DNA of 47,192 nucleotides, counting the filler, from Jimgerdemannia flammicorona (lineage: Eukaryota), in the NCBI GenBank assembly GCA_003990765.1. It is 2 parts of 2 records of this genome, joined end to end, with 100 filler letters (N's around TTAATTAATTAA, not from the genome) between each part and the next. Parts side by side here need not be neighbours in the genome. Positions count along the whole stretch, not along the records: positions 1 to 23,550 come from RBNJ01001094.1; 1 more part is not named here. One strand, 5' to 3'. The notes beneath the pieces are model-generated. The model saw only the letters and a list, made by a program, of their open reading frames with translations, was not told the DNA's origin and made no database searches. The position numbers and the translations under genes are program-made. Numbering within the stretch: position 1 is the first letter of the stretch; every line of letters starts with the position of its first letter. Positions 488 to 44,071 of this stretch are shown here, piece after piece.

Positions 488-517
488 AATGAAATACGGT
501 TTGTTCTCGATCAATCC

Positions 518-11500: not shown

Positions 11501-14053
11501 AGATGCCTCAGTTGGCATTAGATGGATGAGGCTAAAGGAGACTGCTAGAGTCTATTGGAGGAAGGCAGGTATGGTAGCTGAGAGATAGAGAAGGAAGAAG
11601 AGAGTGAGGGCCTCTGTTAGATTGATGAGACTATTGAAAGATTAGGTAGGTTTGGTGGCCCTGGAGGGAGTGGAGGATTGGAGATTGCTATGAGTTAGAA
11701 AGGAGATTGTGGAGTTGTAACAGATATTGCAGGAGGAGGAGGAAGCACAGGTGCAGAGTATGGCTGTATGTCTCCATTGGCAAGAGCTGGAGGAAGAAGA
11801 GAGGTCCTCTAAGTTTCTCACAAGAGCCCTTTAGGTAAGGAGGATTTAGCAGAGATAGGAGGGGGTTCTTGATTCTGAGGAGACATTGGTACATAGCATA
11901 CAAGACATTCTCAGGTCACTGAAGGAACAGTGAAGTGACTTGTAGAGTGAGGAGAAGGGTGGGGCAGAAGATGTCTCTATTGGTATTGCCTTGGAGGATT
12001 GGCATCCACCACAGGCAGAAGGGCTGAGCAATTTGGTGATGCTGGTACAGGAGAAAGAAATTCACCAGATTCTTGCTGCAACTATATTGGGTATAGCACC
12101 AGGTAAGGATGGCCTGCCCTGGGCTTTCTAAAAGAAGATAGTGGATGTCCCCAGTATACTGGGAGAGCTGAGGGCACTCTGTGACTTGGTACTGCAGTTC
12201 AGGAGATGGATAAGAGAGCAGAATCTGGGGCTGGTGGTACTGCTGTATAAGAATAAGAGTAAGAAGGAGGACTGGAGAAACTGGAGGCCAATCATGCTAC
12301 TGGACATAGACAGGAAGTTGATTATGAAGGTAGTAGTAGCAAGACTGCAGAAGGTGGCCCAGCAGGTCTTGGGGGTAGAGTAGTGGGGATTTGTCAGAGG
12401 CCAACTTATTTGAGATAGTATAGCTTGAGTATACAGATTTATTGAAGAGGTATGGACCTGTAGATTGGATGGGTGCCTAGTCTTCTTAGATCAGAAGAAG
12501 GCATATGACTGTGTTTGGAGGGTCTGGTTGGCAAAGATACTAGACAGGATTGGAGTCCCTAATCAGTTCTGAGCAACAATAGTCAGTCTACTGAAAGGGA
12601 GCAGGGCTGCACTTATGTATAATAGATATTGAGGAGTGGCTTTTCCTCTGAGTAGTGGTATTCTCCAGAGGGACCTGCTGTCTCTCATTTTGTATACACT
12701 CTCCTTGGAGCTCCTAATGGATAGGATTTAGCAGAAGATAGGAGAGCTTTTGATTTATAGCATTGAGTGGAAAGTTGGTGCTTTTGCAGATAATATGGTG
12801 GTCAGTCTGAGTTTGATTACTGATATTGAAGAACTCAAGGAGACTGTAGAGTAGTATAAGACACACTTTGGGGCTAAACTCAATTAGCACAAGTGTGAAA
12901 CAATAGTGCTGAGTAATGGCCTGGTAGGGGGGGAGGTTATTGGAACAATTGTCCCTACTGGAGAGATAGTGAGATACTTGGGCATTTATCTGTCAGTGTA
13001 CAGGTCCATTCTTCCAAAACTCTGGTGAGAGTAGTAAGTAGTTATCTAGAGGGAGGCTCTGTAAAGCTGGGGAGGCCACTACTTGTCTCTTGCAGGGTGT
13101 GTTTCTATCTTGAATACTTACTGGCTGCCAAAGTTATAGTATCTGGCATATCATCTGGACTTCCCAGCCTAGGTGGTGAAGAGACTACTGAAACTGGCCA
13201 AGGGGTAGATCTGGGCAGATAGGAGGAGCCAGATTAGCTGGGAAGTTTTGTCTCTACCAGTGACTAGAGAGAGACTTGGGCTAGTTGACTTCTTGAAGAG
13301 ATTATACTACCTGAGAGCATGGTGGCTGAAGAGAGCTGTTGAGCTAGAGAGAGGCAGCTGGGTTTCTCTATTGAAGAAGATCTGAGAGATGAGGTTCTTA
13401 CTGAGAGGATCCACAGGAGATCTTCTGTCCTTGGTTGGACTTTAGAATAATGAATATATGCAGTTTAAGGGCTTCTGGTGGGGAGTTACTGATGGGGCAC
13501 ACTGTATTGACATTCATTGGCAGAGAAATGAGGGAGAAAGGCCTTGGGGCCCAGTGATGTGGAGATAGGATTGAGTATCACTAGGGGGTACCCTCATTGG
13601 TGACTTTTATATTAGTGATGGGGTTAAATACCAGAGGGAGTTGGGGCAGGATCTGTGGCCCAGCAGATGGTAGTTAGTAGGTATTGACAAAGAGTGGAAC
13701 TGGAACAGGATCTGGAACTGGAGTGCTGAGGTTTGGCAGTGACTGCCACTAAAGTATTGAGTAGTCTGGTAGTATATATTGAGGAGAAATGTTATGCTCA
13801 ACTTTCACTCTAACCATCTGGTAGAAGGGAGAATCTTTGACTGTGAGGAGTGCTATAATGTTGGACAGGAAGAGAGTTTGGTACAGATGCCTAAACATTG
13901 GCTAGAGGAGTGCAAGATGCTCAGTGACTTCTGGATAGTAGTTGGGAAGAGACTAGATATCATGCAGAGGAGGGATGGTGTAAGGAATTAGTGGGAGGAT
14001 CTGTAGGATAGACTGGTGAGAGGGGTTGGGAAGGAATAGCTTACTTTAGGGTG
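8565..14053 (+). mobile_element. LINE copy 4, left part (5' UTR, ORF1 8643-10642, ORF2 from 10674), degenerate
   Basis: Same 5' UTR as copy 1; NWRPIMLL and GAFADN RT motifs; C-terminal CEEC...HWLEEC zinc motif (13779..13991); interrupted by the Gypsy LTR at 14054. Confidence 0.9.
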
Positions 14054-14839
14054 TGTAATAGAATGAAAGAGTGTGAACAGATGGGACGTGACAAGTAATC
14101 ATAAATGATCACATGACCTGGCGATGACGTCATCATATGATAGAGCACGGCATATGAATAACGAGCGACGAACGATGCAAACGAATGACGCGAAAATGAT
14201 ATTTAGCTTATCCCTAACAACCGGCACCGCAGCAATAGTTGCCACAGCTGCTGATCATTGCCTAGTAATTGAGGTCCTGATCACAAAGATATTCTTTACC
14301 AAAAACCACCTGACAAAGGTCACAATCACAAACCTCATTATAGTTACCAAATTAGTCACTCATACTTAGTCCGAAATCACAGACCAACTTGTATAAATAC
14401 CCCCCAGTTTCCATCCGAAATAAAGCAGTTTTAGTTCAGTCCTTGATACAAGAATCAAGTTCCCCCCCACACACACATTCCCCTGAGTCTTAGTAATGAC
14501 ATCTAAGTGACTCTAGTGTTTCTGACTAAACTCCAGGAGCCTAGCTAACTTCTGCCAGAACTGAGACCAGTATATAAATCCCCAAAGACTTAAGTAAACC
14601 CATTGAACCTGAATTCCAAGGCAAATTCAGTCTGTGTATAGCAAAGAACAAGACCCTCGAAATAGAGCACAAGAGAAAGACCTTTGAAAGATAAGGCACT
14701 GCCGCTACAACTACTTAAAGTGAGCGCTTTCTCAAACTGAAGGCTATTTGATACACATTGTGTACTAAGTCCCTAAGTAATAGTCCACTTCCCTAATTAT
14801 CCAAAGGATAAGAGAGAGGTAGAAGTGAGAGTTATTACA
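14054..14839 (+). repeat. 5' LTR of G1
   Basis: Direct repeat of 22408-23194; 7-bp terminal inverted repeat; TATAAATACCCC 14392, AATAAA 14419. Confidence 0.97.
14123..14134. promoter_or_regulatory. CRE/ATF-type palindrome GATGACGTCATC in LTR U3 (also 22477-22488)
   Basis: Perfect TGACGTCA core in both LTRs, upstream of the TATA box. Confidence 0.5.
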
Positions 14840-14842
14840 ACT

Positions 14843-14854
14843 TGGTAGCAGTGG
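14843..14854 (+). promoter_or_regulatory. Primer-binding site, probably tRNA-iMet
   Basis: TGGTAGCAGTGG, 3 nt after the 5' LTR; begins with the CCA complement and resembles iMet-type PBS TGGTAGCAG. Confidence 0.75.
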
Positions 14855-15729
14855 ATTACCAGCCAAGAAGGCACCAAAGAATACACTCCTGAAGTTGGAA
14901 CAAGACCAACCTTGGACAGGAGTAACCCCCAGAAACAACTGTGGATCCCTAAACCAGAGCCAGAGAAGCCCTTGCCATTAGGACCAGGTGGTACCAGGAA
15001 ACCACAGACACAGAGACCCGCCAGCTTATAATTGACCAGGCTTACAAGGATCTATACCAGGCCTTTAGGACATACCATCCAGGACTTAGGAATATTATCA
15101 GCTGCCGTAGGTTCTACGAACTCCTCTGAGGATACATTGGAACCACTAGGACCCCTGAATCTACTGCTGTAGCCACCCAGGATTTTTTAGATTATATCAC
15201 ACCCCCTACTATAAGAGAAGTAGCTGCCGAGTAGATTGCCTCTGATAGATATCATCATACCTCAACCAAGACCTCCCTCTACTACAGGCTAGTTGTATAC
15301 TATGCCTCTGTCATAACTAGGTACGAGAATGAGCAAGCAGGCCAACCATCCCCTACTGCTGAACAAGGAGCAGGTCCATCTACCTAGCCAGAGACTGATA
15401 TCCTCTTTGAAGGACCTAGTCAGTATGAGGACGCACTATCTCATCAGGGAAGGGAGTCAGATGAAGACTCTATAGGTTATCAGTCTGACAATAGTCAACG
15501 AGGAATAGCAGGCCTAGGAATTTACCAAGGAACCACAGGTCAAGAAGATCAGACCCCAGAACCAACCCAGCCACCTATACAGAGGTTTGGTTTACCCTCT
15601 CTCACAGAACTCTTTGACTTGATATCCAGGAATCAAGTAACCTCAAGTCATACAGCACCACAACCCCATCAAGCAGAACAATCTTCAGGAGAATCTACCC
15701 CAACAGGCCCACCACCAATAGTCAACACA

Positions 15730-18700
15730 ATGGTTGATGCCAACATTACAGCACTGACCACCCAGCTAGCAGCACTAGCAGGGATAGTAGGACAGATTAC
15801 TGAACAGAACAAACCAACCAAGATCTTGCGAATTCCAACATTCAGTAGAAAAAACAGTGACATTGAAAACTTCATCAATGTAGTTGATACAGGCTACCAA
15901 GCCAATCAATGGAATGATAACCGAGTGCCTATAGGAATGCTCACAAACAACCAGAACAGTACCCTTCAACAGCTGTTTGCCACATCAGTAGCACAAGTGG
16001 AAACAGTAGCCACATTCTTCACTGGAACAGCAGCCGAATTCTGGCGAACCTTGGAACAACACCCAGTAACCTGGGAAGCCTTCCCTCAAGTCAATGGACA
16101 AGTACCTGGCAACAATAGACCAGGTTGGGATGACCATGAAGCAGGCCCAGGACTCAAGGCCTTGCTACTGACCAAATTCTGAAATGTAGTCTACATATAA
16201 GAAACTTGGAACAAACTGTCCCAGATGAAGTTCCACAAGAATGGCGAAGAAGATCTAGAGACCTTTGCCACCAGAATGGATGCCTATCTCAAAACTGTTG
16301 GACTTACTTACCAGGAGAACAATTTGGCCATCAATGGTACCAGAGCCAACCATCTCTTTGCAGCCCTACCAGACTGGCTCACCCAAAAGATCAAGGAACA
16401 AGGTCTTCCCCAAGGATGTCCCCACTACTCATAGTACTTTGCTCAAGTACAAAGAAGAGCCCGCAAAATCCTTGCTGCACAAGCTCTACGAAATCAAGAA
16501 CACAAGAAGGATAACCAAGATAGGAGGAACCCTACCAGGAGAAATGATCAAAGGAATGACCAAAGATATGATCAAAGATATGATCAAAGGAACCAGCGAA
16601 ACCCCAGAGGACCCAGACCTCCCACTGAGAATAAAAAGAGGCAGCTCCATGAAAAGGGATTGTGCTTCATCTGCAAGAAGGCAGGACACATCTCAGTCAA
16701 ATGCCCCGAGAAGAGAAACAGATCAGGTGAACCCAGTAACCAAAACATTACTATCATCAGAGAAGGTCCAGGAAAGAAGAACCCTGAGAATGTCATCAAA
16801 GTATAGAAGATATGGTACAAGGCTACCATCTCCACTAAGGCCCACCCAACCGATGCTGGTTATAACCTCTACAGCAGTCAAGACCTCACTATTCCACCAA
16901 GTACCAATGCTACAGTGCAAACAGGAATTGCAATGCAAGCTCCCAGAGGTACATACATCTGCCTTGCTGAACGAAGCAGCCTAGCCAAAGAGTTTAACAT
17001 TGGACTAGGAGGAGGAGTAGTTGATCAAGGATTTACTGGTGAAATCCATGTCATCTTGCAAAATTTTGGAGACACATCATTCAAAGTCAAAACTGGCCAA
17101 AGAATTGCCCAAGCAATCATTGAAGAAATCCATTAAGATCTTACCATTGAAGAAGTCCCCAAGCTCTTCCAGACAGACCATGGCAAGAAAGGGTTTGGAT
17201 CTACCAACAAACCTCCCAGTCAAAAGATCACTACCATGAAGGAAGATGATGAAAACTAGTACAAGAGAATTGCAGATGGTTATGCACCATGTGGACGATG
17301 CCCTCATTCTATTCAAATGTACTGCATGGAACATGTTGGTGAATGCCATGCATGCCTCTCCAAAGTTTTCAAAATTCAATCCAAGAAGCATCAAGCCCCA
17401 CAGACTGAGGAATCCAAACAAGACAACCCTCCTTGTAAAGGATGGGGAGAAACTGACTTTGAGGAGACTGACCACAATTGGGACAACAATGAGAATGAAG
17501 AGCTCAACACCATCAAGAAGGAGAACAGTTGCATCAAGTTCACAGGCCAAATCCACGGACAGAATGTCAATGTCTTGCTTGATAGTAGTGCTACTGGAAA
17601 CTACATCAACACTAAGACCACCAAGAGGATTGGAGCCCAAAGCAGACCAACTACTGAGAAAAGAAGTATTACCTTCAGTGATGGAAAGACTGTGCCATTG
17701 ACCAAGATCTGTGAAGATCTCTTGCTCAAGATTGGCAAATATCAAGAGAAGTTGGACTTCAGTATTGTAGATCTTCCAGGACAGGACATCATCCTAGGAA
17801 AAGCCTGGTTGACCCAGCACAACCCAGACATCAACTGGAGGACCAATGAGGTTAACCTGACCCACAAAGGCAGAAAGATCACTCTGATACCCCAGGAAGG
17901 TACCAACCACTAAGAAATCGAAATCATCTCTGCCATTCAAATGAAGAGACTCTCTCAAAAAAAGGGAAACACCTACTTCATCTGTACAGTACAAGAAGTC
18001 ACTGAAGCTACAAGTAGCCCAATTCCAACAAAAGCTCAAGAACTGTTTGAAGAATTCCAAGATGTATTCCAAGATCCTCAAGGACTTCCACCCAAGCACC
18101 AAATCCATCATGGAATTGATCTTATTCCAGGATCTGAACCCCCATACAAGAGTATCTACCAACTGGCACAACCTGAGCTCAAGACCCTCAAGGATGAATT
18201 GACCAAACTACTGGCCCAAGGATACATTGAACCCAGCCACTCTCCATTTGGAGCCCCCATTCTATTTGTCAAGAAGAAGGATGGCTCTCTGCGAATGTGT
18301 ATTGACTACAGAGCCCTCAACAAGATCACCATCAAGAACTGGTATGCCTTGTCTAGGATTGATGAGTTGCTACACCAAATATTCAAGGCCAAGACTTTTT
18401 CCCTACTAGACTTGCGAAATAGTTATCATCAGATTCTCATTGATGAGAAGGACATTGAAAAGACAGCTTTCTGAACATGGTTTGGACACTACCAGTTCCA
18501 AGTCATGCCTTTTGGATTGACCAATGCACCAGCAACATTCCAGTATCTGATGAATGATATCTTTGGACCACTCCTCAACATCTGTGTCCTTGTGTATATT
18601 GATGATATACTAATCTACAGTGAGACAGTAGAGTTACACTACACCCACCTCAGACAAGTACTGACCCTCCTGTGAGAATACCAGCTCTATGCCAAGATGA

Positions 18701-20922
18701 GCAAATGCAAGTTCTACCAAGATCAGATTGAATACCTGAGACACATCATCTCTGCTGAAGGTATCAATGTGGACCCCCAAAAGGTATCAGCCCTCAAAGA
18801 TATCCCTATCTCTAATACCCTCAAGTTACTCCAGCACTTTCTGGGTATTGCCAGTTATTACCGAAAGTTTATCCAAGGATACTCTGCTATTGCAGCCCCA
18901 CTGACCAGCCTGGCCCACAAAGGAGTGAACATCAAAGCTGAATGGACCCCTGAATGCACCCTGGCTATGGATCATCTCAAGAGACTCCTTACTGAGGCCC
19001 CAGTGCTGATTGCACCTGACCCTACCAGACCATTCACCCTGACCACAGATGTCTCTGATATTGCTATTGGAGCAGTACTCAGCCAAGAAGACTGCCCAGT
19101 GGCCTACCTTTCCCAGAAGCTCAAGCCAGCTGAGACCTGGTATATCACCCATGAGAAGGAACTCCTGGCTATTGTCACTGCACTCCAGGAATGGCGCCAT
19201 TTCCTCCTAGGACAGCCATTTGTGGCCTACACTGATCACCATGCACTACAGTATATTCACACACAGCCTATGCTGACCCACAGACAAGTCCACTAGATGG
19301 AAATCATTGCCAACTTTGATATGGAAATCAAGTATATCTCAGGCAAAACCAACTATATGGCTGATGGTTTCTCCAGGTATATGGAAGATGAACTTGTCTT
19401 CATAGTCGAGGTAATTAGAGACCTTACCCAAATGATCAAGAATGGCTATCAGCAAGACAGCCCCCTGATGAATTTCCTTCAATTCTGCCAAGACCCAGAG
19501 GCCAAGGTCCCAGAACCCATGAGGCAAATGGCCAAGAGATTCACCTACCATGATGGACTTATCTATAGGGACCATGACAGAGTGGTTGTACCCAACAATG
19601 ATACTCTGTGACTCAAGATCATGCAGGAACTCCATGATACTCCTGCAGCAGGACACTTTGGTTTAGAAAAGACCTACAACCTCCTCTCAAGAGAGTTCTA
19701 TTGGCCAAAGATGACCAAGGATATCAAAGACTTTGTGGCCTCATGCCAGATGTGCCAAAGGTTCAAAAGTGGTAACAAGCTACCAGCAGGACTCCTGCAA
19801 CCCTTGCCTATCCTGAGTCACAATTGGGACCAGATTGCAATGGACTTCATTGTCCAACTCCCCAAGACCAAGGCAGGATGGGATGCCATCATGGTATTCG
19901 TAGACTGCCTAAGTAAACAAGCCCATTTTGCACCCACCAAGACCACCACTACAGCACCAGAGATTGCTGAGATCTTTCTCAACCAAGTATTCAGGCTACA
20001 TGGCATGGCTAGCACTATCGTATCTGACCGAGATGCCAAGTTCACAAGCAACTTCTGGAAGGCATTCTTCTCCCTCCATGGAACTAAGCTGAAGTTCTCT
20101 ACTGCCTACCACCCTCAGACTGACAGTCAAACTGAGCGAACCAACAGGACTCTCAAACAGATGCTTAGCATCTTTTGCTGTTACAAGCAAAATGATTGCA
20201 ACAAGTACCTAGCCCATGCTGAGTTTGCCTACAACAACAGTCAGCAAACCTCCACAAAGAAGACTTCATTCTTCCTGAACCATGGTCAACACCCAAGAAC
20301 CCCAAGTACTATTGCGAAATCAGCAGTCCCAGTAGCCCAAGATCTGGCCAAGACCATTTCTGACCTTACCTGAATGACAAGAGATGCTCTCATAGAAGCA
20401 CAAGACTACCAGACCAAGTATGTGAACTTGAAGCAAAGAGAAGCCTTCTACAATATTGGTGACATAGTCATGCTTAGAACAGACCACCTCCACCCTGACA
20501 CCCCGGCACAACAACCAGCCAAGAAACTCCATGCTAGAAAAATTGGACCATACAAGATTGTGGAAAAAATCAGCAAAGTCAACTATAAATTGCAACTTCC
20601 TCACAATATCCAAGTACACCCAGTATTCCATATCAGCCAATTGGTGGACTACTATGAGAACCCATTCCCTGAGTGTACAGTTCCACCACCACCCCCAATT
20701 AGGATCAATGATCATGAGGAATTCGAAATTGAGGAAGTACTTGACCACAAGGTCCACAAATATCCCAAAACAGCCAAGCAGTTTTTCCTGATCAAGTGGA
20801 AGGGTTACCCCACCCACGATGCCATCTGGGAAAAAGAAGAAGCCCTGAAGAATGTACGCGAAGCCCTTCAGGACTACATGGAAACACTTACTCCCCAGCA
20901 AAGGAAGGAACTACAGCTCTAA
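15730..20922 (+). pseudogene. G1 single-frame gag-pol polyprotein broken only by nonsense codons
   Basis: All fragments are in one frame. CCHC knuckle CFICKKAGHISVKC 16663-16704; protease LLDSSAT ~17575; RT YIDD 18595-18606; RNase H TTDVSDIAIGAVLSQ; integrase HHCC and core 19621-20373; chromodomain ~20716-20880. Confidence 0.95.
16792..17208 (+). pseudogene. dut: dUTPase domain of G1, between Gag zinc knuckle and protease
   Basis: All five trimeric dUTPase motifs: DAGYNL, ERSSLA, GGVVDQGFTGEI, GQRIAQ, GKKGFGST. Confidence 0.93.
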
Positions 20923-21565
20923 GTATTGGAGCGCATAGTGAGCAGAAGGATACTATATATTTTATCCAGAAACATATAATACCAAATATTGTGAAAAAAG
21001 GAATACTATGGATAACCAACAAGAAGATACCCGAGCAAAAGAACAATCTAGTACAGTACAGCAAAATATATTTGAACAACTCTATTTCATGCCATCTGTG
21101 TCATCTCTGCTGGATGATGACAGACACTTCATGTGAAACTTAGAAAAGCCGACAATGTTGAAACCAGTCTAAGTCCATCTACGTGACAGATATTATTACT
21201 AGGAATTGTCTCGGATTATAAGAAAAGTCTATTTCCGAGAGGTTCAAACCCCCAGCTGTGACTATGGGAGCCCTCACCCTAGACAAGGATGGCCAGTCCT
21301 CGCAAATGTGCCAACCAGACAAAAAAAAAGTGGACCAAGACCTGTTAACCCTGTGTAACCACAACTATGAGTGACAAGATCTTTGAAATCAGAATTTTCT
21401 CATGTGACCAGCACATGCTCCGCTTACAGCACAGGTCATACATTTTGCCAGAAAGTGTGACCAAAGGAAGGTCACATCAGATGGGGGAATAAGTATAAAT
21501 ACCCAAGGCCAGAATACCCTGCAACTCTCATCCCTCTCTCCTTACAAAGAAAAGACAAGACAAGA

Positions 21566-22396
21566 ATGCCTGCCACCTGCCGCCAAACTGCCCGCCATAG
21601 CCAGCCCCTCCCAAGCCAGGTTGACTGCCTCTTTGGACACATCCAGGTTGCCATCCAAGGAAGGAACCGCTGCTCAGAGGCCCTTAACCTCTCCAGCCCA
21701 GACCTAGGACAGTATGTCCTTGACTGCCATGAACTTATCGAAAGGACCTACCTTGCTACCAGCTGCCTAGAAATCTGGCATAAATATGAAATCGGTCACC
21801 AGCTTCTCCAACATACAAATGGCCTACCCACAGACCAGGTCTCTGACTGGACCCACCTAGACAGGCATGAGCAAAGACTTGTCAAGAAGGTCCATCAAAT
21901 CATGTACCATGCACCCTTTGTGATCCCCAACCTCAACTACATACAACTGAAGGACTTCCAGAACCTCTCTTTCCCTGAGGTCGATACCCTAGAAGTCAAG
22001 GTCGCCCAAGAAACCAACTCCTGGATTGCCCTCAAGTCTACTGACATCAAGCCTCACTGGAGCCCCCTCCTGAATGACAACTCTGACCAATGGCTCCAAG
22101 GCCTCTCTGACCTCTTTGAAGGACCACCTACCTGAATGGATATTCCCAGACATGAAGATCAAGAACCCTACTTGGATGGCTCCAACTGCATCAGATGGAG
22201 AACCCCTACACCAGCACCTATTCTAATGCAAGAACCATTTGCAGACCTCATTGACTTCTCCATCTTGGACAGCAAGCCATCAGCAACCACCACCCCCCCT
22301 GCTACTGAAGAAGATGCCAACAATCCTGAGCAGGATTCCTCACCTTTCTCTCCCCTAGTTCTCAATTTCTCAATCAATGAGGACATTGATTTCTAA
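21566..22396 (+). pseudogene. G1 extra 3' ORF of unknown function (~276 aa, one internal TGA)
   Basis: ORFs 21566..22135 and 22136..22396 are in frame; final TAA abuts the PPT; homologue in G2 at 42670-43468. Confidence 0.8.
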
Positions 22397-22407
22397 GGGG
22401 GGAAGGA
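22395..22407 (+). promoter_or_regulatory. Polypurine tract of G1
   Basis: AAGGGGGGAAGGA directly before the TGT of the 3' LTR. Confidence 0.92.
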
Positions 22408-23194
22408 TGTAATAGAATGAAAGAGCGCAAACAGATGGGATGCAACGAGCAATCACAAATGATCACATGACCCGATGATGACGTCATCATATGATCGAGC
22501 ATGGCATATGAATAACGAGTGATGAACGATGCAAACAAATAATGCGGAAAACAATATTTAGATTATCCCTGACAATCAGTGCCGCAGCAACAGTTATCAC
22601 AGCTGCTGATCATTGCCTAGTAATTGAGGTCCTGATCACAAAGATATTCTTTACCAAAAACCACCTGACAAAGGTCATGATCACAAACCTCATTATAGTT
22701 ACCAAATTAGTCACTCATACTTAGTCAGAAATCACAGACCAACTTGTATAAATACCCCCCAGTTTCCATCTGAAATAAAGCAGTTTTAGTTCAGTCCTTA
22801 ATACAAGAACCAAGTCCCCCCCCACACACACATTTCCCTGAGTCTTAGTAATGACATCTAAGTGACTCTAGTGTTTCTGACTAAACTCCAGAAGCCTAGC
22901 TAACTTCTGCCAGAACTGAGACCGGTATATAAATCCCCAAAGACTTAAGTAAACCCATTAAACCTGAATTCCAAGGCAAATTCAGTCTGTGCACAGTAAA
23001 GAACAAGACCCTCGAAATAGGGCACAAGAGAAAGACCTTTGAAAGATAAGGCACTGCCGCTACAACTACTTAAAGCAAGCACTTCCTCAAACTGAAGGCT
23101 TCTTGGTATACATTGTGTACTAAGTCCCTAAGTAATAGTCCACTTCCCTAATTATCCAAAGGATAAGAGAGGGGTAGAAGTGAGAGTTATTACA
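22408..23194 (+). repeat. 3' LTR of G1
   Basis: Direct repeat of 14054-14839; TG...CA ends; followed by TSD GAGTG. Confidence 0.97.
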
Positions 23195-23550
23195 GAGTGG
23201 TTGCTGGCTGTATAAATAGGATTAGCAGGATACTGGTTTTATGTATTTGAGGATAAGAGACATCTGGGCTTAGAGATATGTCTGTTGTAGTGGGAAAGAC
23301 TGATGGAGGATACTCTGATGGGTTGGTGGTATGGGTGGGGACTGCAGGGTGGTCAGTGGCATCATTTGGTAGAGAAGATATGCAGACAGAGTGGGAAGAG
23401 AGTTGGGGTTATGAAAGATAGGGTGATTTTCAAGCATAAAGGAGTAAGGGGAGGAGGGAGTTCCCCTATAGAGATTGAGTAGTGAGAGGAGATAATGTAA
23501 ATATATATAGACTGATATTAAATGTCAAAGTCTGAGTAACTATAAAAAAG
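23195..23550 (+). mobile_element. LINE copy 4, right part (ORF2 end, 3' UTR, start of A-tail)
   Basis: Resumes homology with the 3' regions of copies 5 and 6; ends AGTCTGAGTAACTATAAAAAA at the gap. Confidence 0.85.
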
Positions 23551-26020: not shown

Positions 26021-26552
26021 AAATGTCTCTGTGACCGAAGCCTTATTTATTTCATTTATTATCTGGTCAGCAATACAGAAGCCTTATGACCATTCTATTT
26101 ATTTACTATCTGGTCGGTGAATGTCTCTGTAACTGAAGCCTTATGACCATTCTATTTATTTTATTTTATTATATTATCTGGTCAGCGAATGTCTCTGTGA
26201 CTGAAGCCTTATGACCATTCTACATATTTATTTTATTTTATTTCATTATCTGGTCAGTGAATGTCTCTGTGACTGAAGCCTTATGACTACTCTACATATT
26301 TATTTTATTTTATTTTATTATCTGGTCGGCGAATGTCTCTCTGACTGAAGCCTTATGACCATTCTACATATTTATTTTATTTTATTTTATTATCTGGTTG
26401 GTGAATGTCTCTGTGACTGAAGCCTTATGACCATTCTACATATTTATTTTATTTTATTTCATTATCTGGTTGGCGAATGTCTCTGTGACTGAAGCCTTAT
26501 GACCATTCTATTTATTTATTTTATTATCTGATCGGCGAATGTCTCTGTGACT
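26021..26552. repeat. 72-bp-unit minisatellite (~7-8 units)
   Basis: GAATGTCTCT starts at 26119, 26187, 26259, 26331, 26403, 26475, 26537; units differ in an internal (TATTT)n tract. Confidence 0.95.
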
Positions 26553-26619
26553 CACTGAACAATGCTGTCTCCCTCTCTGACACTGCCATTATACCCTATA
26601 TTAATAGGCCCCTGCACCA

Positions 26620-27130: not shown

Positions 27131-27189
27131 GAGCTTCCTGTTGCGACCCAGCATCTAATATGGTACATATTGGTTTCATGCCACCTGGT

Positions 27190-27430
27190 CGCCCTTCCGT
27201 CATCTCGCCATCCGTCATCTCGCTATCCGTCATCTTGCCGCCCATCATCTCGCTGTCCATCATCTCGCCATCCATCATCTCACCGTCCATCATCTCGCTG
27301 TCCGCCATCTCGCCGTCCATCATCTCGTCATCTGTCATCTCGCTGTCCATCATCTCGCCATCCCTCATCTCGCCATCCATCATCTCACCATCCATCATCT
27401 CGCTGTCTGTTATCTTGCACTCCATCATCT
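27190..27430. repeat. 15-bp-unit tandem repeat (CCATCATCTCGCCRT)
   Basis: Visible periodicity; IISPS / EMMDG repeats in the ORF track. Confidence 0.9.
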
Positions 27431-27734
27431 TGTGATATCTTTGTCTTACAGTCTATTATCATTTTTAAGTCCATTATCATCATTTTGCAGTCTATTATTG
27501 TCTTGCAGGTGAAGTCATCATCATCATAACCTTATATCCTGTGGTCTATTATCTGCTGCATTCTTATTTCATACAATTGTAATATAAATATATATATATG
27601 AAGCATCTGGATAGGATTGTTCAGAAACTAGAGGCATATCTGGGTATAATTTTGAGAGTTCTAGGACAGTTCGAAAACCAAAGCAAAATATTTTTGCACA
27701 GATCCAGATATTGACTAGAATGCATCAAAACATT

Positions 27735-28006
27735 TCCAGATATTTTAGCAATGAGTGGGTAATTTTCATCTATTCCGGAACAATGTCCCCTAGTAACTAG
27801 AATAGTATATCTATACTGCTAAATTTGTTCTGGAACACCTCAGAACTGTGATTCTAGTTTCGTGATGTGCATATCCAGATATTTTAGCAATGATTTGGAT
27901 AATTTTCATCTATTGCAGAACAATGTCCTCTAGTAACTAGAATGGTATATCTATACTGCTAAATTTGTTCTGGAACACCTCAGAATTGTGATTCTAGTTT
28001 CATGAT
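27735..28006. repeat. ~140-bp tandem duplication ending at LINE copy 5
   Basis: 27735-27866 and 27874-28006 nearly identical (TCCAGATATTTTAGCAATGA...GATTCTAGTTTCRTGAT). Confidence 0.9.
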
Positions 28007-31000: not shown

Positions 31001-32717
31001 AGCCTCTCCTGGACAGAATTCAGCATCAAATTGGGGGTTTGGACATTTTAGGGATTAATTGGAAGGTGGGGGCCTATGCAGATAATATGGTGGTCAGGCT
31101 GGGCTCCTTGGCAGATGTGGGGGAGTTGTAGAGGTCTGTGGAATGGTATGAGAGGGGTTCTGGTGCTAAGCTGAACTGGCACAAGTGCGAGACTCTGGTG
31201 CTGAGCACTGGTATTATTGATGGTGATGTCATTGAGATGGTGGTACCAGCTGGTAAACCAGTGCGTTATTTGGGGATCTACTTCTTGGTGTTTGGATCTC
31301 TACTTCCCTGGGCATGGTGAGACCATAAACTTCTGGAGTGGGGAAATGTCCTGCTGCGATGGAGAGACTGGCATATGTCTCTAGCCAGGAGGGTGATAGT
31401 GCTGAATGTGTACTGGATGCCATTGCTGTGATATGTGGGGTATCATTTGGACTTTCCAACCTGAGTGGTCAAGGGGTTGTTGAAGATGGCGAGGTCATGG
31501 ATCTGAGGCAGGTGGCAAAGCCAGGTTGGTTGGGAGGTGCTCACACTGCCCTTGGAAAGAGGTGGGCTGGGCTTAGTGGATTTTACTAAGTGGCTTCTAT
31601 GTCTGAGAGCTTAGTAGTTGCGAAGGGCGAGCGAGCTTTAGGGTCATAAGTGGGTGCCACTCATGTAGAGGTTGTGGGAGGTTCGGTACTCCCTGCATGG
31701 TGACTCAGGTGACCTGCTCGCAATGGTGGCCATGGAAGAGAGTAGAAGGATGCGGTTCACTGACTTCTGGTGGGGAGTGGTGGATGGTACTAAGAAGATT
31801 ATACTTAGGTGGTGAGGTAATGAAGCTGAGGAGGATTGGGAACCATGGATATGGCCATGGGACAGGCTACTTCTGGGTGGTGTTCCAGTGGAAAACTTTC
31901 AGCTTCGCAAGGGTTTGGAGTATCTGTGAGGCCTGGGTGGAGACCTGTGGCCTGAAGCCTGGCAGAGGGTTGGAATTGGTGAGGAGTGGGATTGGAATGA
32001 ACTCTGGCTTTGAAGCAAATGGGTGAGACAGTGGCTGCCCCCCAAGTTCTGGTTTGTATGGTGGTGTGTTCTACAGTGGAATGTGATGTTGAACTATCAG
32101 TCTGGGCACTTGGTGGCCAGTGGAGAATTCGAGTGCAAGGATTGTTTCAATGTTGGTCAGGAGGGAGGAGTAGTACAAATGCCTGAACATTGGCTTGGTG
32201 AATGTGAGATTTTGGAGGAGTTTTGGAGATGTATTATGAACTGGGTAGGGCTGCATGTCTTGGAGGGTGAGGTAGGGGGGAGGTGGGGAGAGCTCTGCTG
32301 GTAACTGGTGGGTGGAGTTGGGGATGAATGGCTGACCCTTGTTTGGGCTTTGGCTATGTGGGTTGGGTTGGCTGGGCATTGGGTTCATGTCTTTGAGAAA
32401 GGTCGTCAGGTTGGGGTTATGGACAAGGTGGCATGGTGGGAATGGTTGCTTTTGGATATTTTGAATAGCTGGTGGTGAGGTTGGGGGCTGGGTGGGGGGA
32501 ACTGAAGGGGTTTGGTGTGGTGTATCTTCTGGAAGAGTGGTGGGAGGGTTCAGGTAGTGGGTAATTGGGTGGTGCTAGGGCAGGGGGAAGTCGAGGGGGG
32601 ATCGAACCCATGAGACATTGGTTGAGAGTGGGAGTGGCATTGTATTGTTAGAACTATAGACTTCAGTAATAAAGGGCAGTCCAAGAGACTATAAAAAAAA
32701 AAAAAAAAAAAAAAAAA
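28007..32717 (+). mobile_element. LINE copy 5 (divergent subfamily), 5'-truncated in ORF1, A25 tail
   Basis: ORF2 ATG 28966; GSCYCPA and GDF motifs; GVPQGDPLSP and GAYADN (30817..31131); CKDC..HWLGEC; poly(A) 32693-32717. Confidence 0.92.
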
Positions 32718-38939: not shown

Positions 38940-39343
38940 AAGATTAAGAAGTTTTACCCTGAAGCCAAGATCCCTGAATATAAGACTGAAGAAACTATAG
39001 AAATAGACCTTACCAGCATTTAAGATATACTCTTGAACCACAGACCACCACTCTACTTGGCATTGGAATTGGAGTCAAGTTGCCAGAAAACTATACTGGA
39101 ATTATCAAGACTAGGAGCAGTCTGGCCAAAAGTGAAATCTCAGTTAAAGGAGGAGTAATTGACCTTGATTATACTGATAAGATCTTTCTCATAGTTAGAA
39201 ATTACAACTCTAGTACTCTATTCAATGTCAAGAAGTATAATAGGATTGGCTAGATACTGATCTACAAAATCAAGAAGCCCAAGATCACCAAAGCCATTGA
39301 ACTCATCAAGACCAAGAGAGAAGAACAAGGCTTTGGATCTACT
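38940..39343 (+). pseudogene. dut: dUTPase domain of G2, between protease and RT
   Basis: KIKKFYPEAKIPEYKT, KTRSSLAK, GGVIDLDYTDKI, NRIG*, TKREEQGFGST; one frameshift. Confidence 0.88.
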
Positions 39344-42300
39344 AGAAGAGGAGCCTATACTGCAACCAAGATTACTGAACTTGAGCACAGAAAAGATAAG
39401 AACTGAAACAAGCACACATATACTATTGGAGAAAACTTTTCTCTGGAAGAACAACTTCTCAAGATTCTGCACTAGAATAAAGATATACTTACTATAGACT
39501 TCAGAGATATCCATAATCAAGAACCCAAGTACTACTATAAAGTTAATACCAGTGATACCAAACCCATCTATCAGAAAGCCAGACCTATACCACCTGACTA
39601 TAAAGAATAGCTGCAAGCAGAACTCAAGGAAATGAAAGAAGCCAGAATCATTAAGCAAGCTATTAATCTATGGGCTTCACTCATTATCCTTGCCCCAAAG
39701 AAAGGAAGCAAGCCTGGAGAGTTTGCTCCAAGACTCTATATTGACTACAGGAAGCTCAATACAATCATTAAGAAGAATAGGCAGCTCTTGCCAAATATTT
39801 AAGAAATCCTTACCATTCTTGGAAGCAATACCAAATACTATACTACTTTGGATATGTTCTCAGACTTCTATCAAATTGGTCTCACTTAAGATGCCAGTGA
39901 GAAATCAGTCTTTATCACATCTGATGCCACCTATATCTACCTACAAATACCATTTGGAATATGCAATACTCTAGTAAGTTTTTAGTGAATGATAAACAGA
40001 GTCTTCAGTAATGAAATTGGAAAATAACTCTTAATCTATATTGATGATGTGATTATCTTCAACAATACTGTACAGTAATATATCAACTATATATAGCTAG
40101 CTCTTAAGAAGCTCAAGGAGCATGGACTCCACATTAAGCCCCAGAAGTATAAGTTTGCAGCTCAGAAAATCATCTACCTAGGATACCTCATCAACCAGAC
40201 CAGAATCCACACAGACTATATAAAGATTGAGGCTGTTGCAGTCTACTCAAGACCCAGAACAACTACAGAGATCTATGTCTTCCTTGGACTGGCCTCCTAT
40301 TATAGAAGATTCATCAAAGGATACTTCAATATTGCAATACCTATCTATGAGCTACTGAAGAAGGAGACCAAATTCAAATGGACTAAGAAATACCAAGAAA
40401 CCTTCTATGAACTCAAGACCAGATTGACCCAAGCACATATTCTTAGAAAACCAGATTGGAATTTAGAGTTCATCCTGCAGACAGATGCAAGTGCTATAGA
40501 ACTTGGAGCAGTCCTAGCTTAGAAGAAAGATGGATATGAATATATCTATATAAGCCAAGGTATCTGTAGAGCAGAATAAAACTATGAGTCATTCAAGCTT
40601 AAATGCTTAGTAGTAGTTTAGACAGTAGATAAGTTCCACTACTACCTAGCTCAGAAATACTTCACTATTCAAACAGACCATTCTGCTCTCACCTGGCAAT
40701 TCTATACTCTGAACCACAAAGAAATATATATTAGATAGATCTATAGGCTGCAAGAGTATAATTATACTATCAAGTACTGCCTAGGAAGAACTAATGTCAA
40801 TACTGATGCACTCTCAAGAATACCCCAAAATACCTCCATCAAGACAATTCAATATGAATAAGGAGTTATACTATGGATTAATTAGCTATCTTAAGTAGCA
40901 GAAGATGCCCAACTACCTTGAACCCTGGATAATTACTATTATCAACTAAACTTGGAAATAGTTTGAACTAGACAACACTATACTCAGAAAAAGAGGAAAG
41001 CTTATAATATCTGAATATAAGAAGTATCAAAAATAAAGAAAGTATATAAACAAGGATACCTAGGAGGAATCAATATATATCATAAAATAAAAAGAACTAT
41101 ATAGTGGTCTAAGATAAAAGAAGACCTGCATCAATTTGTCAAAGAGTGTGACAAGTACTAAAAACAGAAACAAGATCAATAAGACCAGATACCCAGGTTA
41201 TCAAGAATTGAGCCATTCTCTTTTCACTACATTATAATAGATATCATTGGACCACTACCAGTAACACTATTAGAAAACTACTATATTATAGTTATTATAG
41301 ACCTCTTTACCAAATGGATATGTAGAAGCAGGAGCATTATAAGAAGCCAATGCCCTCTCTATAGCTGACTTCTTGTACTGAGAAATTATCTACCACTACA
41401 AGATACCAAAGCAAATCACTACAGACCATGATACAGAATTTGTCAATAGATTCTATAAGATAATATATCAGAAATACAAGATTCAGTACATTAAGACCAC
41501 TATATATCACTCTCAAGAAAATGGACAGATAGAGAGAACTAACAAGACTCTCAAGAACATCTTAGTGAAGATCTCAGTCATATATGAGAATTGGGATAAC
41601 TACCTCCCAACTGTCCTCTCTGTCTTATGAGATATATAGTTATAAAGTATACACTTTACCTCAAGAGAACTGCTCTTTAGAGAGGAAGATTCTGATAGAA
41701 CCTTAGCTACAAATCTAGACCTAACTTAGAGATGAGTTGACTCAGAAATCTGGAGACTATACCAAATCAGGAAGAAGGCTGAAGATTATATCATCAAGTT
41801 ATAAGCACTGATGAGGAAAAATGCAGAAAAGAATTACAAGACCCTAGAATCTATCCAAATTAGAGAAAAGATCCTATTGTATTAAAATATAGTAAAAGTC
41901 TCATAGTTGCAAAAACTGGAACTTAAATAGGAAGAACTCTTCTATGAATAAGATATCAAGAGAACTATCTTCTAGCTTAGAAAACTCTCAGAGATCACTA
42001 TCTACTATGGTATATAGGAACAGACTCAAGAAGTACCATGAACCTATATAAGAGAAGCAAAATGTGATGACCATCTGTGAGGTTCTAGTTTGTAAATCAT
42101 AATAGCATATTCCATGACTAGCAAATAATCTGTCTGGACCATTCTTTAAGAGATATAGTACTAACAACTACTTCATGAGACTTTCAAAGCCAGAGGAGTT
42201 CAAACCATCAACTGATTAATCAAGATCAGAATCAGACCCTTGTTCTATAAGAAGGAAGTGACTCTTTACTATTATACCAAAATATATAGGGAAGATATCA

Positions 42301-42669
42301 GCCTATAAACACTACTTTTTGACCCCTTGCCAGAGGTTATAGGATCAGTAAATTTTTTAGGACTGGACTAATGAATAAGGATGTTCAAGAAGATCCTTAT
42401 TCAGGAGGCAGATATAACAGTAATCTCAGAATGATGACATCAGTACAAGAGATAGCAATTCCTTATAAGCTACCAGATTGGAGCACAAAAAGATTATATA
42501 GCATGACTCATCCAGACTATATATAAGATGAGCAATGATATCTAACTGTGAGTCATTGTGACTATGAGACAGATATCTTGAGGAATATAAAAGAAGAATC
42601 AAGAAACCACAGTAGCAGTAATTCAAACAAAGCCTACAGAAATATTTCAAAAGACTTACTATAAACAAA

Positions 42670-43468
42670 ATGTCTACTGCTTATCAAATCTCAAGATCAA
42701 GGAACTACTAAGACCCCTTAGTCTAGGAAAGAATGTTCTAAGATATCTGAAAAGCCAAAAGGACTCATATTATAAGAACTCTTAGTATCAATCTGGGTAC
42801 TAGTGACCTTTATCATTATATTCTCTACTACTGTAAAATGGAAACAAAAATCACTATTACTACTAAATATCTCTAGATATGATAAGAATATGAAATTGGA
42901 AACCTCTTCTGCAGAGAATTCTCTCAAGCCAGCCCTCAAGAGCTACAAGATACTACTCTCATAGATATATGTAAAATAAGGACAGCCAAGAAGATTTAGA
43001 CATGTACCATAGTCGATCTCCAACTTAGAGTATACTAGAGTCTCAGACTTCAGAGATCTGTTAGCCTGTCATATCAATATACTAGAAGCTATGGTAGCTA
43101 CAGAAGCCCAGTCCACTATCACTCTTAATAGTAATAAAGTAGAAGACTTCTGGCATTCCATCCTCTAGAACAACCTAGATCAATTCCTACAAGGATTGAT
43201 CTCTATATTCTAAGGCCCCAGCATCTAGATCAGACCTCTCTAAGACCTTATATTTGTTCCCTATTTTGTAGAAGAGAACTTCATAGATTGGAGAGCCCCT
43301 GCTGAATGTGATGATATCATTAGTGATGATGTCATCTTGTATGACATGTATGATAAGACAGATGAAATATTCACAGACCTTATCTTTTTTGAGAACAGTA
43401 ATGAGGATGAAGCTCTTATGGTCCTGAACTTTCTACTTGAAGTTCTTAGTGATACTGAATTCTGCTAG
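42670..43468 (+). pseudogene. G2 extra 3' ORF, homologue of G1 21566-22396
   Basis: Manual translation through stops and a frameshift: INLGTSDLYHYIL..EYEIGN..RTAKKI..SDFRDL..ILEAMVATE..NNLDQFLQGLISIF*GP..PYFVEENFIDWRAP, acidic tail. Confidence 0.75.
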
Positions 43469-43521: not shown

Positions 43522-44071
43522 TGTTATCCTTATATAGGGGTCATACTAATCTTCTCTATATTGTTTCAATTTTTTCAAGTATCAGTGGTCCTGAAGAACT
43601 TGACCCTTTTCCTATATAACAGTTAATCGTTCTACTAGTATTCTAACCTTATATAACTTAGAATTATTCTAGCATTCTTTTTTTATATTACTGAAATTAT
43701 ACCAGCATCCTAAACTTATACAATCATCTGTACTGATACTGAAACTTGGCAGTTTTCTATATTCCAGTATTTTATTTTATTTTTGGAATTTATATTTAGC
43801 TTTATATCTTAGCAACCATTGAATTATATTTTTTATAAATACCCCTCTTATTTCCTTTGAAATAAAGTCAGTTAAGTTTACTTATATATAATTCCTTGTA
43901 AGCAATCTAAGAGATAACAAAACAGTTTAAAGATAAGAAGTTTGAGGACTATAAGATCTCAGAAAGGCACTCCAATAAGATCTTACTTATAACAAACTTG
44001 TAGTTAGTCTAAGAGATACACCTTGAAGAGAATCTGATGTATTTGAAGAACTCAGCAACCACTAAGTAACA
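43522..44071 (+). repeat. Putative 3' LTR of G2
   Basis: Purine-rich AGGAAGATAG then TGTTATC; TATAAATACCCC 43834 and AATAAA 43861; candidate ends GATAACA 43919 or TAACA 44071. No second copy in the window. Confidence 0.45.

Follow-up and report, generated by a model that had tools for sequence, protein, structure and literature searches.

A selected sense-strand accessory gene between pol and the polypurine tract in a clade of dUTPase-bearing Ty3/Gypsy retrotransposons

The reading frame between pol and the polypurine tract (PPT) of a Ty3/Gypsy element, G1, is a real protein-coding gene of the retrotransposon itself, an additional ORF in sense orientation. It was found in the window, i.e. the whole 47,192-nt stretch of Jimgerdemannia flammicorona DNA that was analysed. 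Codon-level comparison shows the gene to be under purifying selection, and our sequence searches detected no relative outside retroelement-type contexts. Overall, the sequence evidence tips us towards a selected accessory gene that is probably expressed separately and acts as a trans-acting regulator of its element. The features of G1 are as follows.

14049..14053, + strand: left copy of the target-site duplication, GGGTG, adjoining the 5' LTR
14054..14839, + strand: 5' LTR, TG...CA, 786 nt, 93.1% identical to the 3' LTR
14843..14855, + strand: candidate primer-binding site TGGTAGCAGTGG..., beginning 3 nt past the 5' LTR end
15730..20922, + strand: gag-dUTPase-PR-RT-RNaseH-IN-SH3-chromodomain in a single frame with 12 premature stops (Pfam)
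20923..21565, + strand: non-coding spacer from pol to the accessory gene, with stops in the frames
21494..21501, + strand: TATA-like box TATAAATA, 72 nt upstream of the ATG (sequence match; putative promoter)
21566..22396, + strand: accessory gene between pol and the PPT, 189 codons, TGA, 86 codons, TAA
22133..22135, + strand: premature stop TGA in the accessory gene (homologue alignment)
22397..22407, + strand: polypurine tract GGGGGGAAGGA, immediately 3' of the accessory stop codon
22408..23194, + strand: 3' LTR, 787 nt (LTR pair comparison)
23195..23199, + strand: right copy of the target-site duplication, GAGTG, adjoining the 3' LTR

The two LTRs of G1 share 732 matching positions and differ by 54 mismatches, 50 of which are transitions. 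The target-site duplications are identical at 4/5 positions, and their sole mismatch is also a transition. The candidate primer-binding site may correspond to the 3' end of initiator tRNA-Met. Over its 1731 codons the gag-pol frame is interrupted by 12 premature in-frame stops and by no frame shift, and it closes with the TAA at 20920-20922; the start of gag is not fixed because the same frame runs on upstream of 15730. Pfam matches to dUTPase (3e-29), RVT_1 (1.7e-34), Integrase_H2C2 (1e-22) and Chromo (5e-10) all lie in this frame. The dUTPase is placed between the gag zinc knuckle and the protease, i.e. upstream of RT. A chromodomain (PF00385, E 9.6e-12) occupies residues 117-170 of 20374-20919 at the integrase C-terminus, which identifies G1 as a chromovirus. 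The clade that carries the accessory gene is Ty3/Gypsy with a dUTPase upstream of RT, and in G1 an integrase chromodomain as well.

A preliminary description of this DNA had reported an ORF of about 276 amino acids at 21566-22396. Its frame, which differs from that of pol, and its place between pol and the PPT hold, but the frame is not open, being divided by an in-frame TGA at 22133-22135 into stretches of 189 and 86 codons. In 11/11 aligned homologues this column holds a sense residue (R in four, K in one, Q in three and T in three), and the TGA probably arose by change of an R codon at a CpG. The ATG at 21566 is supported by the N-terminal motif MP..R..QT..S.PLPS, which is common to 5/5 sequences extending that far.

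A decayed ORF had also been claimed at the equivalent place of a second element, G2. We recovered it with tblastn downstream of integrase remnants, and the parts of G2 that could be located are listed here.

39023..41564, + strand: pol remnants (Pfam on read-through frames; tblastn with G1 pieces)
39023-39343, + strand: dUTPase
39698-40186, + strand: RT
40379-40759, + strand: RNase H
41039-41173, + strand: integrase zinc finger
41352-41564, + strand: integrase core
42586..42593, + strand: TATA-like box TATAAAAG, 84 nt upstream of the ATG (sequence match)
42670..43468, + strand: decayed accessory gene, ATG at 42670, homology over 42733-43438 (tblastn and comparison with P0003)
43831..43873, + strand: LTR-like block with TATA plus AATAAA, resembling G1 LTR 22744-22785

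The G2 copy is 64% identical (102/159 and 56/88) to an intact metagenome protein, P0003, compared with which it has acquired about ten in-frame stops as well as a single frame shift near 42996-43001. Both accessory copies in the window are dead, that of G1 by a single nonsense codon. Pfam on the read-through frames of G2, a heavily decayed region, detected neither a chromodomain nor SH3, and no LTR borders, PPT or 5' LTR of G2 were found. Its LTR-like block is 79% identical to the G1 LTR over 43 nt (blastn, E 0.007), and its GC content is 0.35.

The relationship between the two copies is visible in protein. The G1 product, searched against the whole window with tblastn, matched 43001-43432 (49/154 identical, 64.3 bits) and 42784-42996 (19/71, 27.7 bits) with a joint E of 7e-16, and all other matches were at or below 20 bits (E >= 3.7). 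When the residues of the G1 protein were shuffled 200 times, the best HSPs against 42001-44000 reached 15.9 bits on average (sd 2.5) and 22.7 bits at most, compared with the 64.3 bits observed, and the motif pairs previously aligned by eye reappeared in the BLAST alignments. At the DNA level, blastn aligned G1 and G2 only in the single 43-nt LTR block. Protein identity between them is 34% for RT-RNase H, 31% for integrase and 27-32% for the accessory gene, and the dUTPase upstream of RT is common to both. The earlier wording of two different Gypsy lineages therefore overstated their independence. The shared dUTPase and the pol-like divergence of the accessory gene fit vertical descent in one clade, and the gene was probably, judging by these alignments, ancestral to a single Ty3/Gypsy clade.

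We found further members of the family in metagenomes. A representative search of 1,835,955,588 proteins gave five matches at E <= 0.001 (range 6.6e-78 to 6.2e-6), and a profile search gave six among 4596 candidates, four of them new. The homologues are unnamed or "hypothetical" ORFs on ENA or JGI metagenome contigs and form at least three sub-lineages: G1-like, G2-like and P0009-like. The DNA context of the gene was seen at three loci, namely G1, G2 and a metagenome contig, L001, which carries an intact copy of 291 codons. In L001, as in G1, the accessory stop directly abuts a purine tract that is followed by the LTR start TGTAATA, and the spacer block 21277-21318 of G1 is conserved with positions 19-61 of L001. 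As regards the proposed location between integrase and 3' LTR, the gene lies directly before PPT and LTR in G1 and L001 and after the integrase remnants in G2. A metagenome scan yielded one relative among 277 pattern matches. The L001 protein as query found no relative among 50 pattern matches in genome contigs or 12 in viral contigs. None of the 190 candidates of near length survived a word-index search, and none of 8000 candidates for longer forms scored in a profile search, which is weak evidence against such forms.

Comparison of G1 with L001 gave a dN of 0.31, a dS of 1.48 and a dN/dS of 0.21 for the accessory gene (0.15 in the core, 0.37 in the tail), with 88, 61 and 127 differences at codon positions one, two and three of 270 codons. 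Together with the existence of intact metagenome homologues, this bears out the earlier proposal of selection on the protein over diverged DNA. Near-identical DNA adjoining the PPT on its 5' side overlaps the last accessory codons (DIDF), and conservation of the C-terminus may be partly cis-acting rather than protein-level.

No match to a described transposable-element ORF or host family, which the preliminary description had named as a possible objection, emerged from Pfam, PDB sequences or fold libraries. Specifically, no named or longer cellular homologue was found in protein searches, Pfam or PDB sequences (E <= 10), Pfam on 12 members returned no credited family, a sequence profile against the PDB gave no match at E <= 10, and the ESM Atlas offered unrelated clusters alone, with low shared-feature counts. 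ATG5_HBR, a Pfam hit in 3/12 members with a best E of 0.028, was not credited. We also rejected the gene as a duplicated or diverged gag: when the family profile was aligned by hhalign to G1 gag (15388-17331, read through as X), the probability was 0.2%, over an 8-residue match. An LFEGP motif recurs at about 15406, in the frame of the gag leader, and was treated as chance (E 0.29).

The accessory protein has the motifs F.GP, which is invariant, and PY...I.W, and its core is not basic (pI 4.1-6.5). The two motifs conserved in the tail, F.DLI.F and VLNF, are hydrophobic-acidic; in the P0009 sub-lineage a plain E-rich run takes their place. A charge count agreed with the acidic tails noted before, the net charge being negative in 11/11 tail-bearing sequences (-8 to -25). 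AF2 with 12 sequences reached a mean pLDDT of 56.9 and a pTM of 0.49, with block means of about 59-91 over residues 11-160 and below 30 in the tail; an earlier model from 8 sequences was poor (pLDDT 40.5). The prediction shows, at middling confidence, a helical core, about 140 residues long, followed by a disordered acidic tail. Searches with this middling-confidence model gave a best E of 0.47 with Foldseek against the PDB, and a wide VIA-align comparison found none of 48,161 chains at Z >= 5, the best Z of 4.1 being noise level for helical proteins. Against BFVD the best E was 0.037, with none at or below 0.001. Among the VIA-align rows at Z 3-4 were several ParB/SopB/KorB DNA-binding (helix-turn-helix) domains, all of one family, which we record as a lead only.

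As regards expression, the accessory gene does not seem to be translated together with gag-pol, since it lies in a different frame behind a spacer of about 640 nt with stops. Read-through from pol was rejected on these grounds. TATA-like boxes precede the accessory ATG at 3/3 loci, at -72 (G1), -80 (L001) and -84 (G2). This arrangement suggests that the gene is probably carried on its own mRNA, most likely by way of an internal TATA-type promoter 72-84 nt upstream; a spliced mRNA would be the alternative route. The boxes are short AT-rich words, and that of G2 is possibly a by-product of C-to-T decay, a chance match being likelier in an AT-rich element. A cis element shared between the accessory upstream region and the LTR was not significant in G1, where 152 and 148 of 200 shuffles reached the score. 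In L001, a 33-nt block was reached by 4/200 shuffles, which is suggestive for this one element only. A 946-nt contig (run X15) starts at 21544, 50 nt past the TATA-like box, and was not counted as a transcript start; the run has no cover over 21340-21527, and its status as RNA is a guess.

A separately expressed accessory protein would act in trans to regulate the element, with its structured core docking to a partner and its acidic tail recruiting host machinery. The proposal of a transactivator or an anti-silencing factor would be compatible with the TATA-like box upstream and with an acidic tail that bears hydrophobic motifs. By analogy with VP16 or foamy-virus Tas, we tentatively put forward activation of the element's own promoters by the acidic, activation-domain-like tail as the likeliest single mechanism, a possible but by no means assured one. 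Only an adaptor-type activator could be meant, as a DNA-binding one finds no support in a core that is not basic and in which the fold searches did not recognise a DNA-binding domain. Motifs of the acidic-hydrophobic type are just as typical of tails that interact with SUMO or Atg8 or that bind histones or basic proteins. A wider conjecture, to which we give rather little weight, is that this clade of fungal-type chromoviruses consists of "complex" retroelements, in which an internal promoter would supply a trans factor recruiting transcription, SUMO or autophagy machinery to activate or protect the element in the silent chromatin that its chromodomain integrase would target. Such a factor would be the functional counterpart, in a fungal retrotransposon, of the regulatory genes of retroviruses, with a fold that has no known relative.

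Unlikely, but the best placed of the other explanations, is a counter-silencing factor or host-pathway adaptor. Here the tail would serve as a SUMO- or Atg8-interacting motif or as a binder of histones or basic proteins and would protect the element or its particles against autophagy or against silencing that depends on heterochromatin or SUMO, instead of activating transcription. The tail motifs are hydrophobic quartets flanked by acidic or serine runs, as in LISF followed by SDDDDE in P0003 or D-E before F-A-D-L, and such motifs resemble phospho-SIM and LIR patterns. The acidity of the whole protein and the chromodomain of the G1 integrase point the same way, chromodomain integrases being generally held to target insertion into silent chromatin. 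However, the tail motifs are short and degenerate, and the P0009 sub-lineage does without them.

Less likely again is a factor for RNA handling or copy-number control, either a Rev/CERV-like protein that would export or stabilise genomic RNA or an inhibitor that starts internally and would limit the element itself, which is the logic of Ty1 p22. The leucine/isoleucine pattern of the L001 tail can be read as a class-1b export signal, but it is not conserved from one sub-lineage to another, an RNA-binding motif and a basic patch are absent from the protein, and the lack of gag similarity described above also argues against this idea. That LTR elements can carry such regulators follows from C. 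elegans Cer1, which encodes CERV, an orphan protein needed for genomic-RNA export (PMC10309623).

Capture of a host gene fragment, once and as a passenger without a role in the element life cycle, has a real precedent in the documented gene transduction by LTR retrotransposons (PMC7264820), but we consider it very improbable here. Transduced genes are reported in one or few copies (PMC7264820), whereas three diverged sub-lineages carry the accessory gene under the constraint seen above. Moreover, there is no host-type homologue, the matches are all short metagenome ORFs of the same architecture, and no longer or fused forms turned up among the 8000 candidates. An env-like protein for membrane fusion or cell-to-cell spread can practically be set aside: env and the env-like additional ORFs of plants do occupy the sense position from pol to the 3' LTR (PMC7264820), but the maximum Kyte-Doolittle 19-mer of <= 1.07 in 11/12 sequences (a borderline 1.78 in one fragment) is too low for a transmembrane helix, so that the protein is soluble as judged by hydropathy, its N-terminus is polar, basic and not signal-like, it is acidic and partly disordered, and no Pfam env or fusion family and no clear fold match (middling-confidence model) was found, all in line with the earlier statement that this is no classical env.

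The family is compact, selected and orphan; intact copies of it occur in environmental data, and its features are simple and open to testing. Should the protein prove to control transcription or to oppose silencing, simple retrotransposons outside animals would have evolved retrovirus-like regulatory genes, and the family would help to explain how such elements evade their hosts. Even as one more uncharacterised additional ORF it is worth annotating, and it should be kept apart from env and from host genes.

Additional ORFs are widespread in LTR retrotransposons, and to our knowledge almost none of them has a known function; the best-studied ones are from plants and nematodes. Foamy-virus Tas and herpesvirus VP16 illustrate an accessory gene at the 3' end that has a promoter to itself, and a protein whose structured core leads into an acidic activation tail. 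Their likeness to the accessory protein is one of working logic alone, as no sequence or fold similarity was found. Homology to Tas gave no Pfam match at E <= 1 and none in BFVD at E <= 0.001, an outcome that depends on these libraries holding Tas.

The closest described class is that of the plant aORF-3S (Vicient & Casacuberta 2020, PMC7264820), which has the same place and orientation. The accessory gene agrees with it in lying on the sense strand between pol and the 3' LTR, in occurring in three sub-lineages and in having solely short metagenome ORFs as homologues. Both are found in diverged copies or lineages, are conserved like other element proteins and have no relatives outside transposable elements (PMC7264820). 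Most plant aORF-3S resemble env, having transmembrane segments and mRNAs that are spliced (PMC7264820). In contrast, the accessory protein is acidic, lacks a transmembrane segment and has its own TATA-like box, and its element is a fungal-type chromovirus with a dUTPase, not Athila or Tat. Maize Grande gene23 is likewise an orphan accessory gene in a long 3' internal region, with its own promoter and a nuclear protein (PMC7264820), but it is antisense to gag-pol and belongs to a non-chromovirus plant element; the likeness is by description. CERV is an orphan, lineage-restricted Ty3/Gypsy regulator that acts in trans in the nucleus (PMC10309623). It differs, again by description, in its 517 aa, its five-exon spliced mRNA overlapping gag and its G-protein-like and ring-forming domains.

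Among fungi, Novikova et al. 2010 drew an "add. ORF" without a known function for some chromodomain-bearing Gypsy elements and described dUTPase-bearing chromoviruses in Postia, Phanerochaete and Tuber (PMC2864245). This "add. ORF" may or may not be the same family, the comparison being by description only. Literature searches turned up no such fungal family by name, and the PMC2864245 supplement on the "add. ORF" could bear on novelty. In our reading of the sequences, the accessory gene is best classed among the sense additional ORFs, as one that belongs to a clade of fungal-type chromoviruses.

G1 (14054-23194), one of two decayed Gypsy retrotransposons in the window, is a complete but dead LTR element that carries the extra gene between pol and the polypurine tract. 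Its parts, together with the dUTPase of the second element, G2 (remnants at about 39023-43468), are as follows.

Parts of G1 and the dUTPases of both elements
Target-site copies: GGGTG and GAGTG
LTRs: 786 and 787 nt, TG...CA, 93.1% identical
Primer-binding candidate: 3 nt past the 5' LTR, begins TGG
15730-20922: gag-pol in a single frame; in order CCHC knuckle, dUTPase, protease, RT (1.7e-34), RNase H, integrase zinc finger and core, Tf2-type SH3, chromodomain
16822-17205 (G1) and 39023-39343 (G2): dUTPase (PF00692), upstream of RT; 3e-29 and 6e-17
Spacer from pol stop to extra gene: about 640 nt, contains stops; extra gene in another frame than pol
21566-22396: extra gene
3' junction: extra-gene TAA, then directly the purine tract GGGGGGAAGGA, then the 3' LTR

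The primer-site candidate is of the TGGTAGC type, and the chromodomain has aromatic residues typical of fungal-type elements. Along with the strong CpG depletion and the dUTPase-chromovirus architecture, which is reported for basidiomycetes and Tuber (PMC2864245), these traits would suit a host that is a soil fungus with CpG methylation, for instance an agaricomycete. The dUTPase of G1 is placed between the gag zinc knuckle and the protease.

Within its 1731 codons the gag-pol frame has 12 premature stops; frame shifts are absent. The CpG observed/expected ratio in G1 (14840-22407) is 0.13, with a TpG excess of 1.5, and 50 of the 54 mismatches between the LTRs are transitions, which indicates decay of this copy by C-to-T type changes. 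CpG depletion and LTR transitions point to methylation-linked CpG decay rather than CpA-directed RIP. G2 is by far more decayed (GC 0.35; CpG observed/expected 0.01 in 38700-43470), and the CpG depletion is extreme in both elements. Parts of the window recur at 85-99% identity in contigs of all four sequencing runs compared, two of them from soil metagenomes and the other two each labelled with a different organism, the differences being overwhelmingly transitions. The extra gene in G1 is decayed as much as the remainder of the element: with stops as frequent as in gag-pol, its 277 codons should hold about two, and one is seen. Translation yields 189 codons, a TGA at 22133-22135, 86 further codons and the TAA. 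The frame thus exists where the preliminary description had placed it but is not intact, the in-frame TGA having been overlooked. Because the corresponding column holds R, K, Q or T in 11 of 11 homologues in a 12-sequence alignment, the TGA is a lesion of that one copy.

These homologues were not reached by a word-index search at similar length. HMMER against 1,835,955,588 representative proteins retrieved five (E of 6.6e-78, 9.2e-60, 1.7e-40, 4.9e-10 and 6.2e-6), and a profile search retrieved six, four of them new. All are unnamed or "hypothetical" ORFs on ENA/JGI metagenome contigs of 567-4848 nt; a search for longer, fused forms of the gene found none. The 12 aligned sequences, in which P numbers denote metagenome proteins and L001 a metagenome contig, form three sub-lineages.

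Sub-lineages of the extra-gene family
G1-like: G1, L001, P0001, P0002
G2-like: P0003, P0007, P0010, P0004, P0011
Third: P0009, P0005, P0012

The L001 contig (1535 nt) contains 375 nt of non-coding upstream sequence and an intact extra gene of 291 codons; after the stop of this gene come AGGAGGGAGGA and TGTAATA, a junction as in G1. Comparison of G1 with L001 over 270 aligned codons (Nei-Gojobori) gave a dN of 0.31, a dS of 1.48 and a ratio of 0.21, which is only rough because dS is near saturation; the core alone gave 0.15 and the tail 0.37. Codon positions 1, 2 and 3 showed 88, 61 and 127 differences, and the pattern is that of a translated, constrained gene. The interpretation as a retrotransposon accessory protein under selection is supported by the family, dN/dS and the position before the polypurine tract and LTR. 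The last codons overlap about 20 nt of nearly identical DNA immediately before the polypurine tract, and this near-identity may reflect a cis-acting constraint.

A tblastn search of the whole window with the G1 product (stop written as X) matched, besides the gene itself, solely the G2 regions 43001-43432 (49/154 identical, 64.3 bits) and 42784-42996 (19/71 identical, 27.7 bits), with a joint E of 7e-16; the remaining matches in the window had at most 20 bits and E of at least 3.7. The best HSP of 200 shuffles of the G1 protein against 42001-44000 averaged 15.9 bits (sd 2.5, maximum 22.7), compared to the observed 64.3, and blastn aligned G1 with G2 only in the LTRs, over a TATA/AATAAA block of 43 nt. 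The non-significant alignment that would have refuted the resemblance of the two genes, previously seen by eye, thus did not come about, and the resemblance is a genuine one between the proteins. In G2, the gene runs from an ATG at 42670 to about 43441-43468, interrupted by about ten stops and shifted in frame once, near 42996-43001; its stretch 42733-43438 is 64% identical to the intact P0003 (102/159 and 56/88).

When one frame of G2 is read through with X, the dUTPase, RT, RNase H and integrase zinc finger are still recognisable; no chromodomain was detected in this frame, and neither a 5' LTR nor a clear polypurine tract was found. Identity between G1 and G2 is 34% in RT-RNase H, 31% in integrase and 27-32% in the extra gene. 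The common, unusual dUTPase and the pol-like divergence of the extra gene suggest that the gene was already present in the ancestor of one clade. This is the simplest reading, separate gain by two lineages being improbable, and it weakens the independence implied by the earlier wording of "two different Gypsy lineages".

A U6 snRNA match at 43492-43595 (-) (RF00026, full length 1-105; 57.9 bits, gathering score 44) lies 24 nt past the G2 accessory frame, where the G2 LTR is expected to start. By eye it shows many transition changes, as elsewhere in G2, and could belong to the element or be a U6 retro-pseudogene inserted there. Immediately before the G2 gag region, at 38424-38470, there is a long run of A/T homopolymer (translated as a lysine run); a LINE inserted next to G2, and responsible for the loss of the G2 5' end, may have left it as its tail. 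Kilobase blocks of extreme GC skew in 1-8000, 9000-14000 and 28000-33000 (-0.34 to -0.50, then +0.34 to +0.55) coincide with LINE-like remnants.

Other features of the window
2-517 (-): Exo_endo_phos remnant, LINE-like
785-2665 (-): G/A/R-rich open frame of 627 codons, adjoining the endonuclease remnant; no Pfam match; possibly a LINE ORF1-type protein
26081-26597: tandem array, 6 copies, 72-nt period
27163-27460: tandem array, about 13 overlapping copies, 15-nt period
30805-31128 (+), 32692-33165 (-), 36643-36912 (+): RVT_1 remnants, LINE-like

The extra gene encodes a selected, element-borne, soluble protein in which a structured core, predicted to be helical, precedes a disordered tail that is acidic and carries motifs. 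No 19-residue window hydrophobic enough for a membrane helix occurs in 11 of the 12 sequences, and one fragment reaches 1.78. The protein matched no Pfam family, no PDB sequence at E ≤ 10 and nothing useful in the ESM Atlas, and it does not resemble the gag of its element. AlphaFold2 with 12 sequences (mean pLDDT 56.9, pTM 0.49; an earlier 8-sequence model was poor) predicted a helical core (residues 11-160, block means about 59-91), then a stretch of low confidence, a pair of short strands and a tail scoring under 30. Structural searches gave a best E of 0.47 with Foldseek against the PDB and 0.037 in BFVD, and VIA-align found no chain with Z ≥ 5 among 48,161; several ParB/KorB-type DNA-binding domains among its weak rows are a lead only, since their Z of 3-4 falls within the noise that this tool gives when the model is helical. 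The N-terminus MP..R..QT..S.PLPS is common to all five sequences reaching that far, and the matching ATG is retained in G2 DNA. After a conserved W-R-x-P, the tail has a net charge of -8 to -25 in 11 of 11 sequences that continue. The tail motifs F-x-[DN]-L-I-x-F and [VI]-L-N-[FI] recur in the G1-like and G2-like groups, and an E-rich run replaces both in the third sub-lineage. LFEGP, the family's most invariant motif, is found once at about 15406 in the frame upstream of G1 gag, probably by chance given an hhalign E of 0.29.

Expression as part of the gag-pol polyprotein is ruled out by the frame change and the intervening stops. From the sequence, an internal promoter appears preferable: TATA-like boxes lie 72 nt (G1), 80 nt (L001) and 84 nt (G2) before the ATG. 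A non-coding block of about 42 nt (G1 21277-21318, L001 19-61), possibly a cis element, is conserved in a spacer that is otherwise not alignable. A test for sequence common to the LTR was negative for the region upstream of the G1 gene and weakly positive for that of L001 (a 33-nt block, equalled in 4 of 200 shuffles). A spliced subgenomic mRNA, as in env-like ORFs, is the alternative to the internal promoter.

The protein would influence, in trans, the cycle of the element that encodes it. Transcriptional activation, with the protein serving as an adaptor much like VP16 or foamy-virus Tas, is ranked first, if tentatively, because the tail resembles acidic activation domains: it is acidic with bulky hydrophobics in a Phi-x-x-Phi-Phi pattern, e.g. 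F-A-D-L-I. A counter-silencing adaptor that contacts SUMO, Atg8 or basic proteins would fit these features as well. The protein may instead serve RNA export or copy-number control. The non-basic core (pI 4.1-6.5) speaks against direct contact with DNA or RNA.

Additional ORFs placed between pol and the 3' LTR form an established class, and most of them lack an assigned function; for the antisense ones, a task resembling that of retroviral accessory proteins has been suggested (PMC7264820). In maize, Grande gene23 is driven by a promoter of its own and encodes a nuclear product, yet it is antisense (PMC7264820), whereas the extra gene is sense. Cer1 CERV is an orphan export factor (PMC10309623), and rotifer elements combine diverse ORF3s with a dUTPase (PMC5408684). 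Novikova et al. 2010 (PMC2864245) describe dUTPase-bearing chromoviruses in fungi, a less common layout that is reported from certain basidiomycete and Tuber elements; the legend of their Figure 3 lists an "add. ORF" "with unknown function". The literature searched yielded no named description of such a protein. The extra gene is a new, orphan example of the recognised additional-ORF class, with a possible overlap with the "add. ORF" of Novikova et al. 2010.
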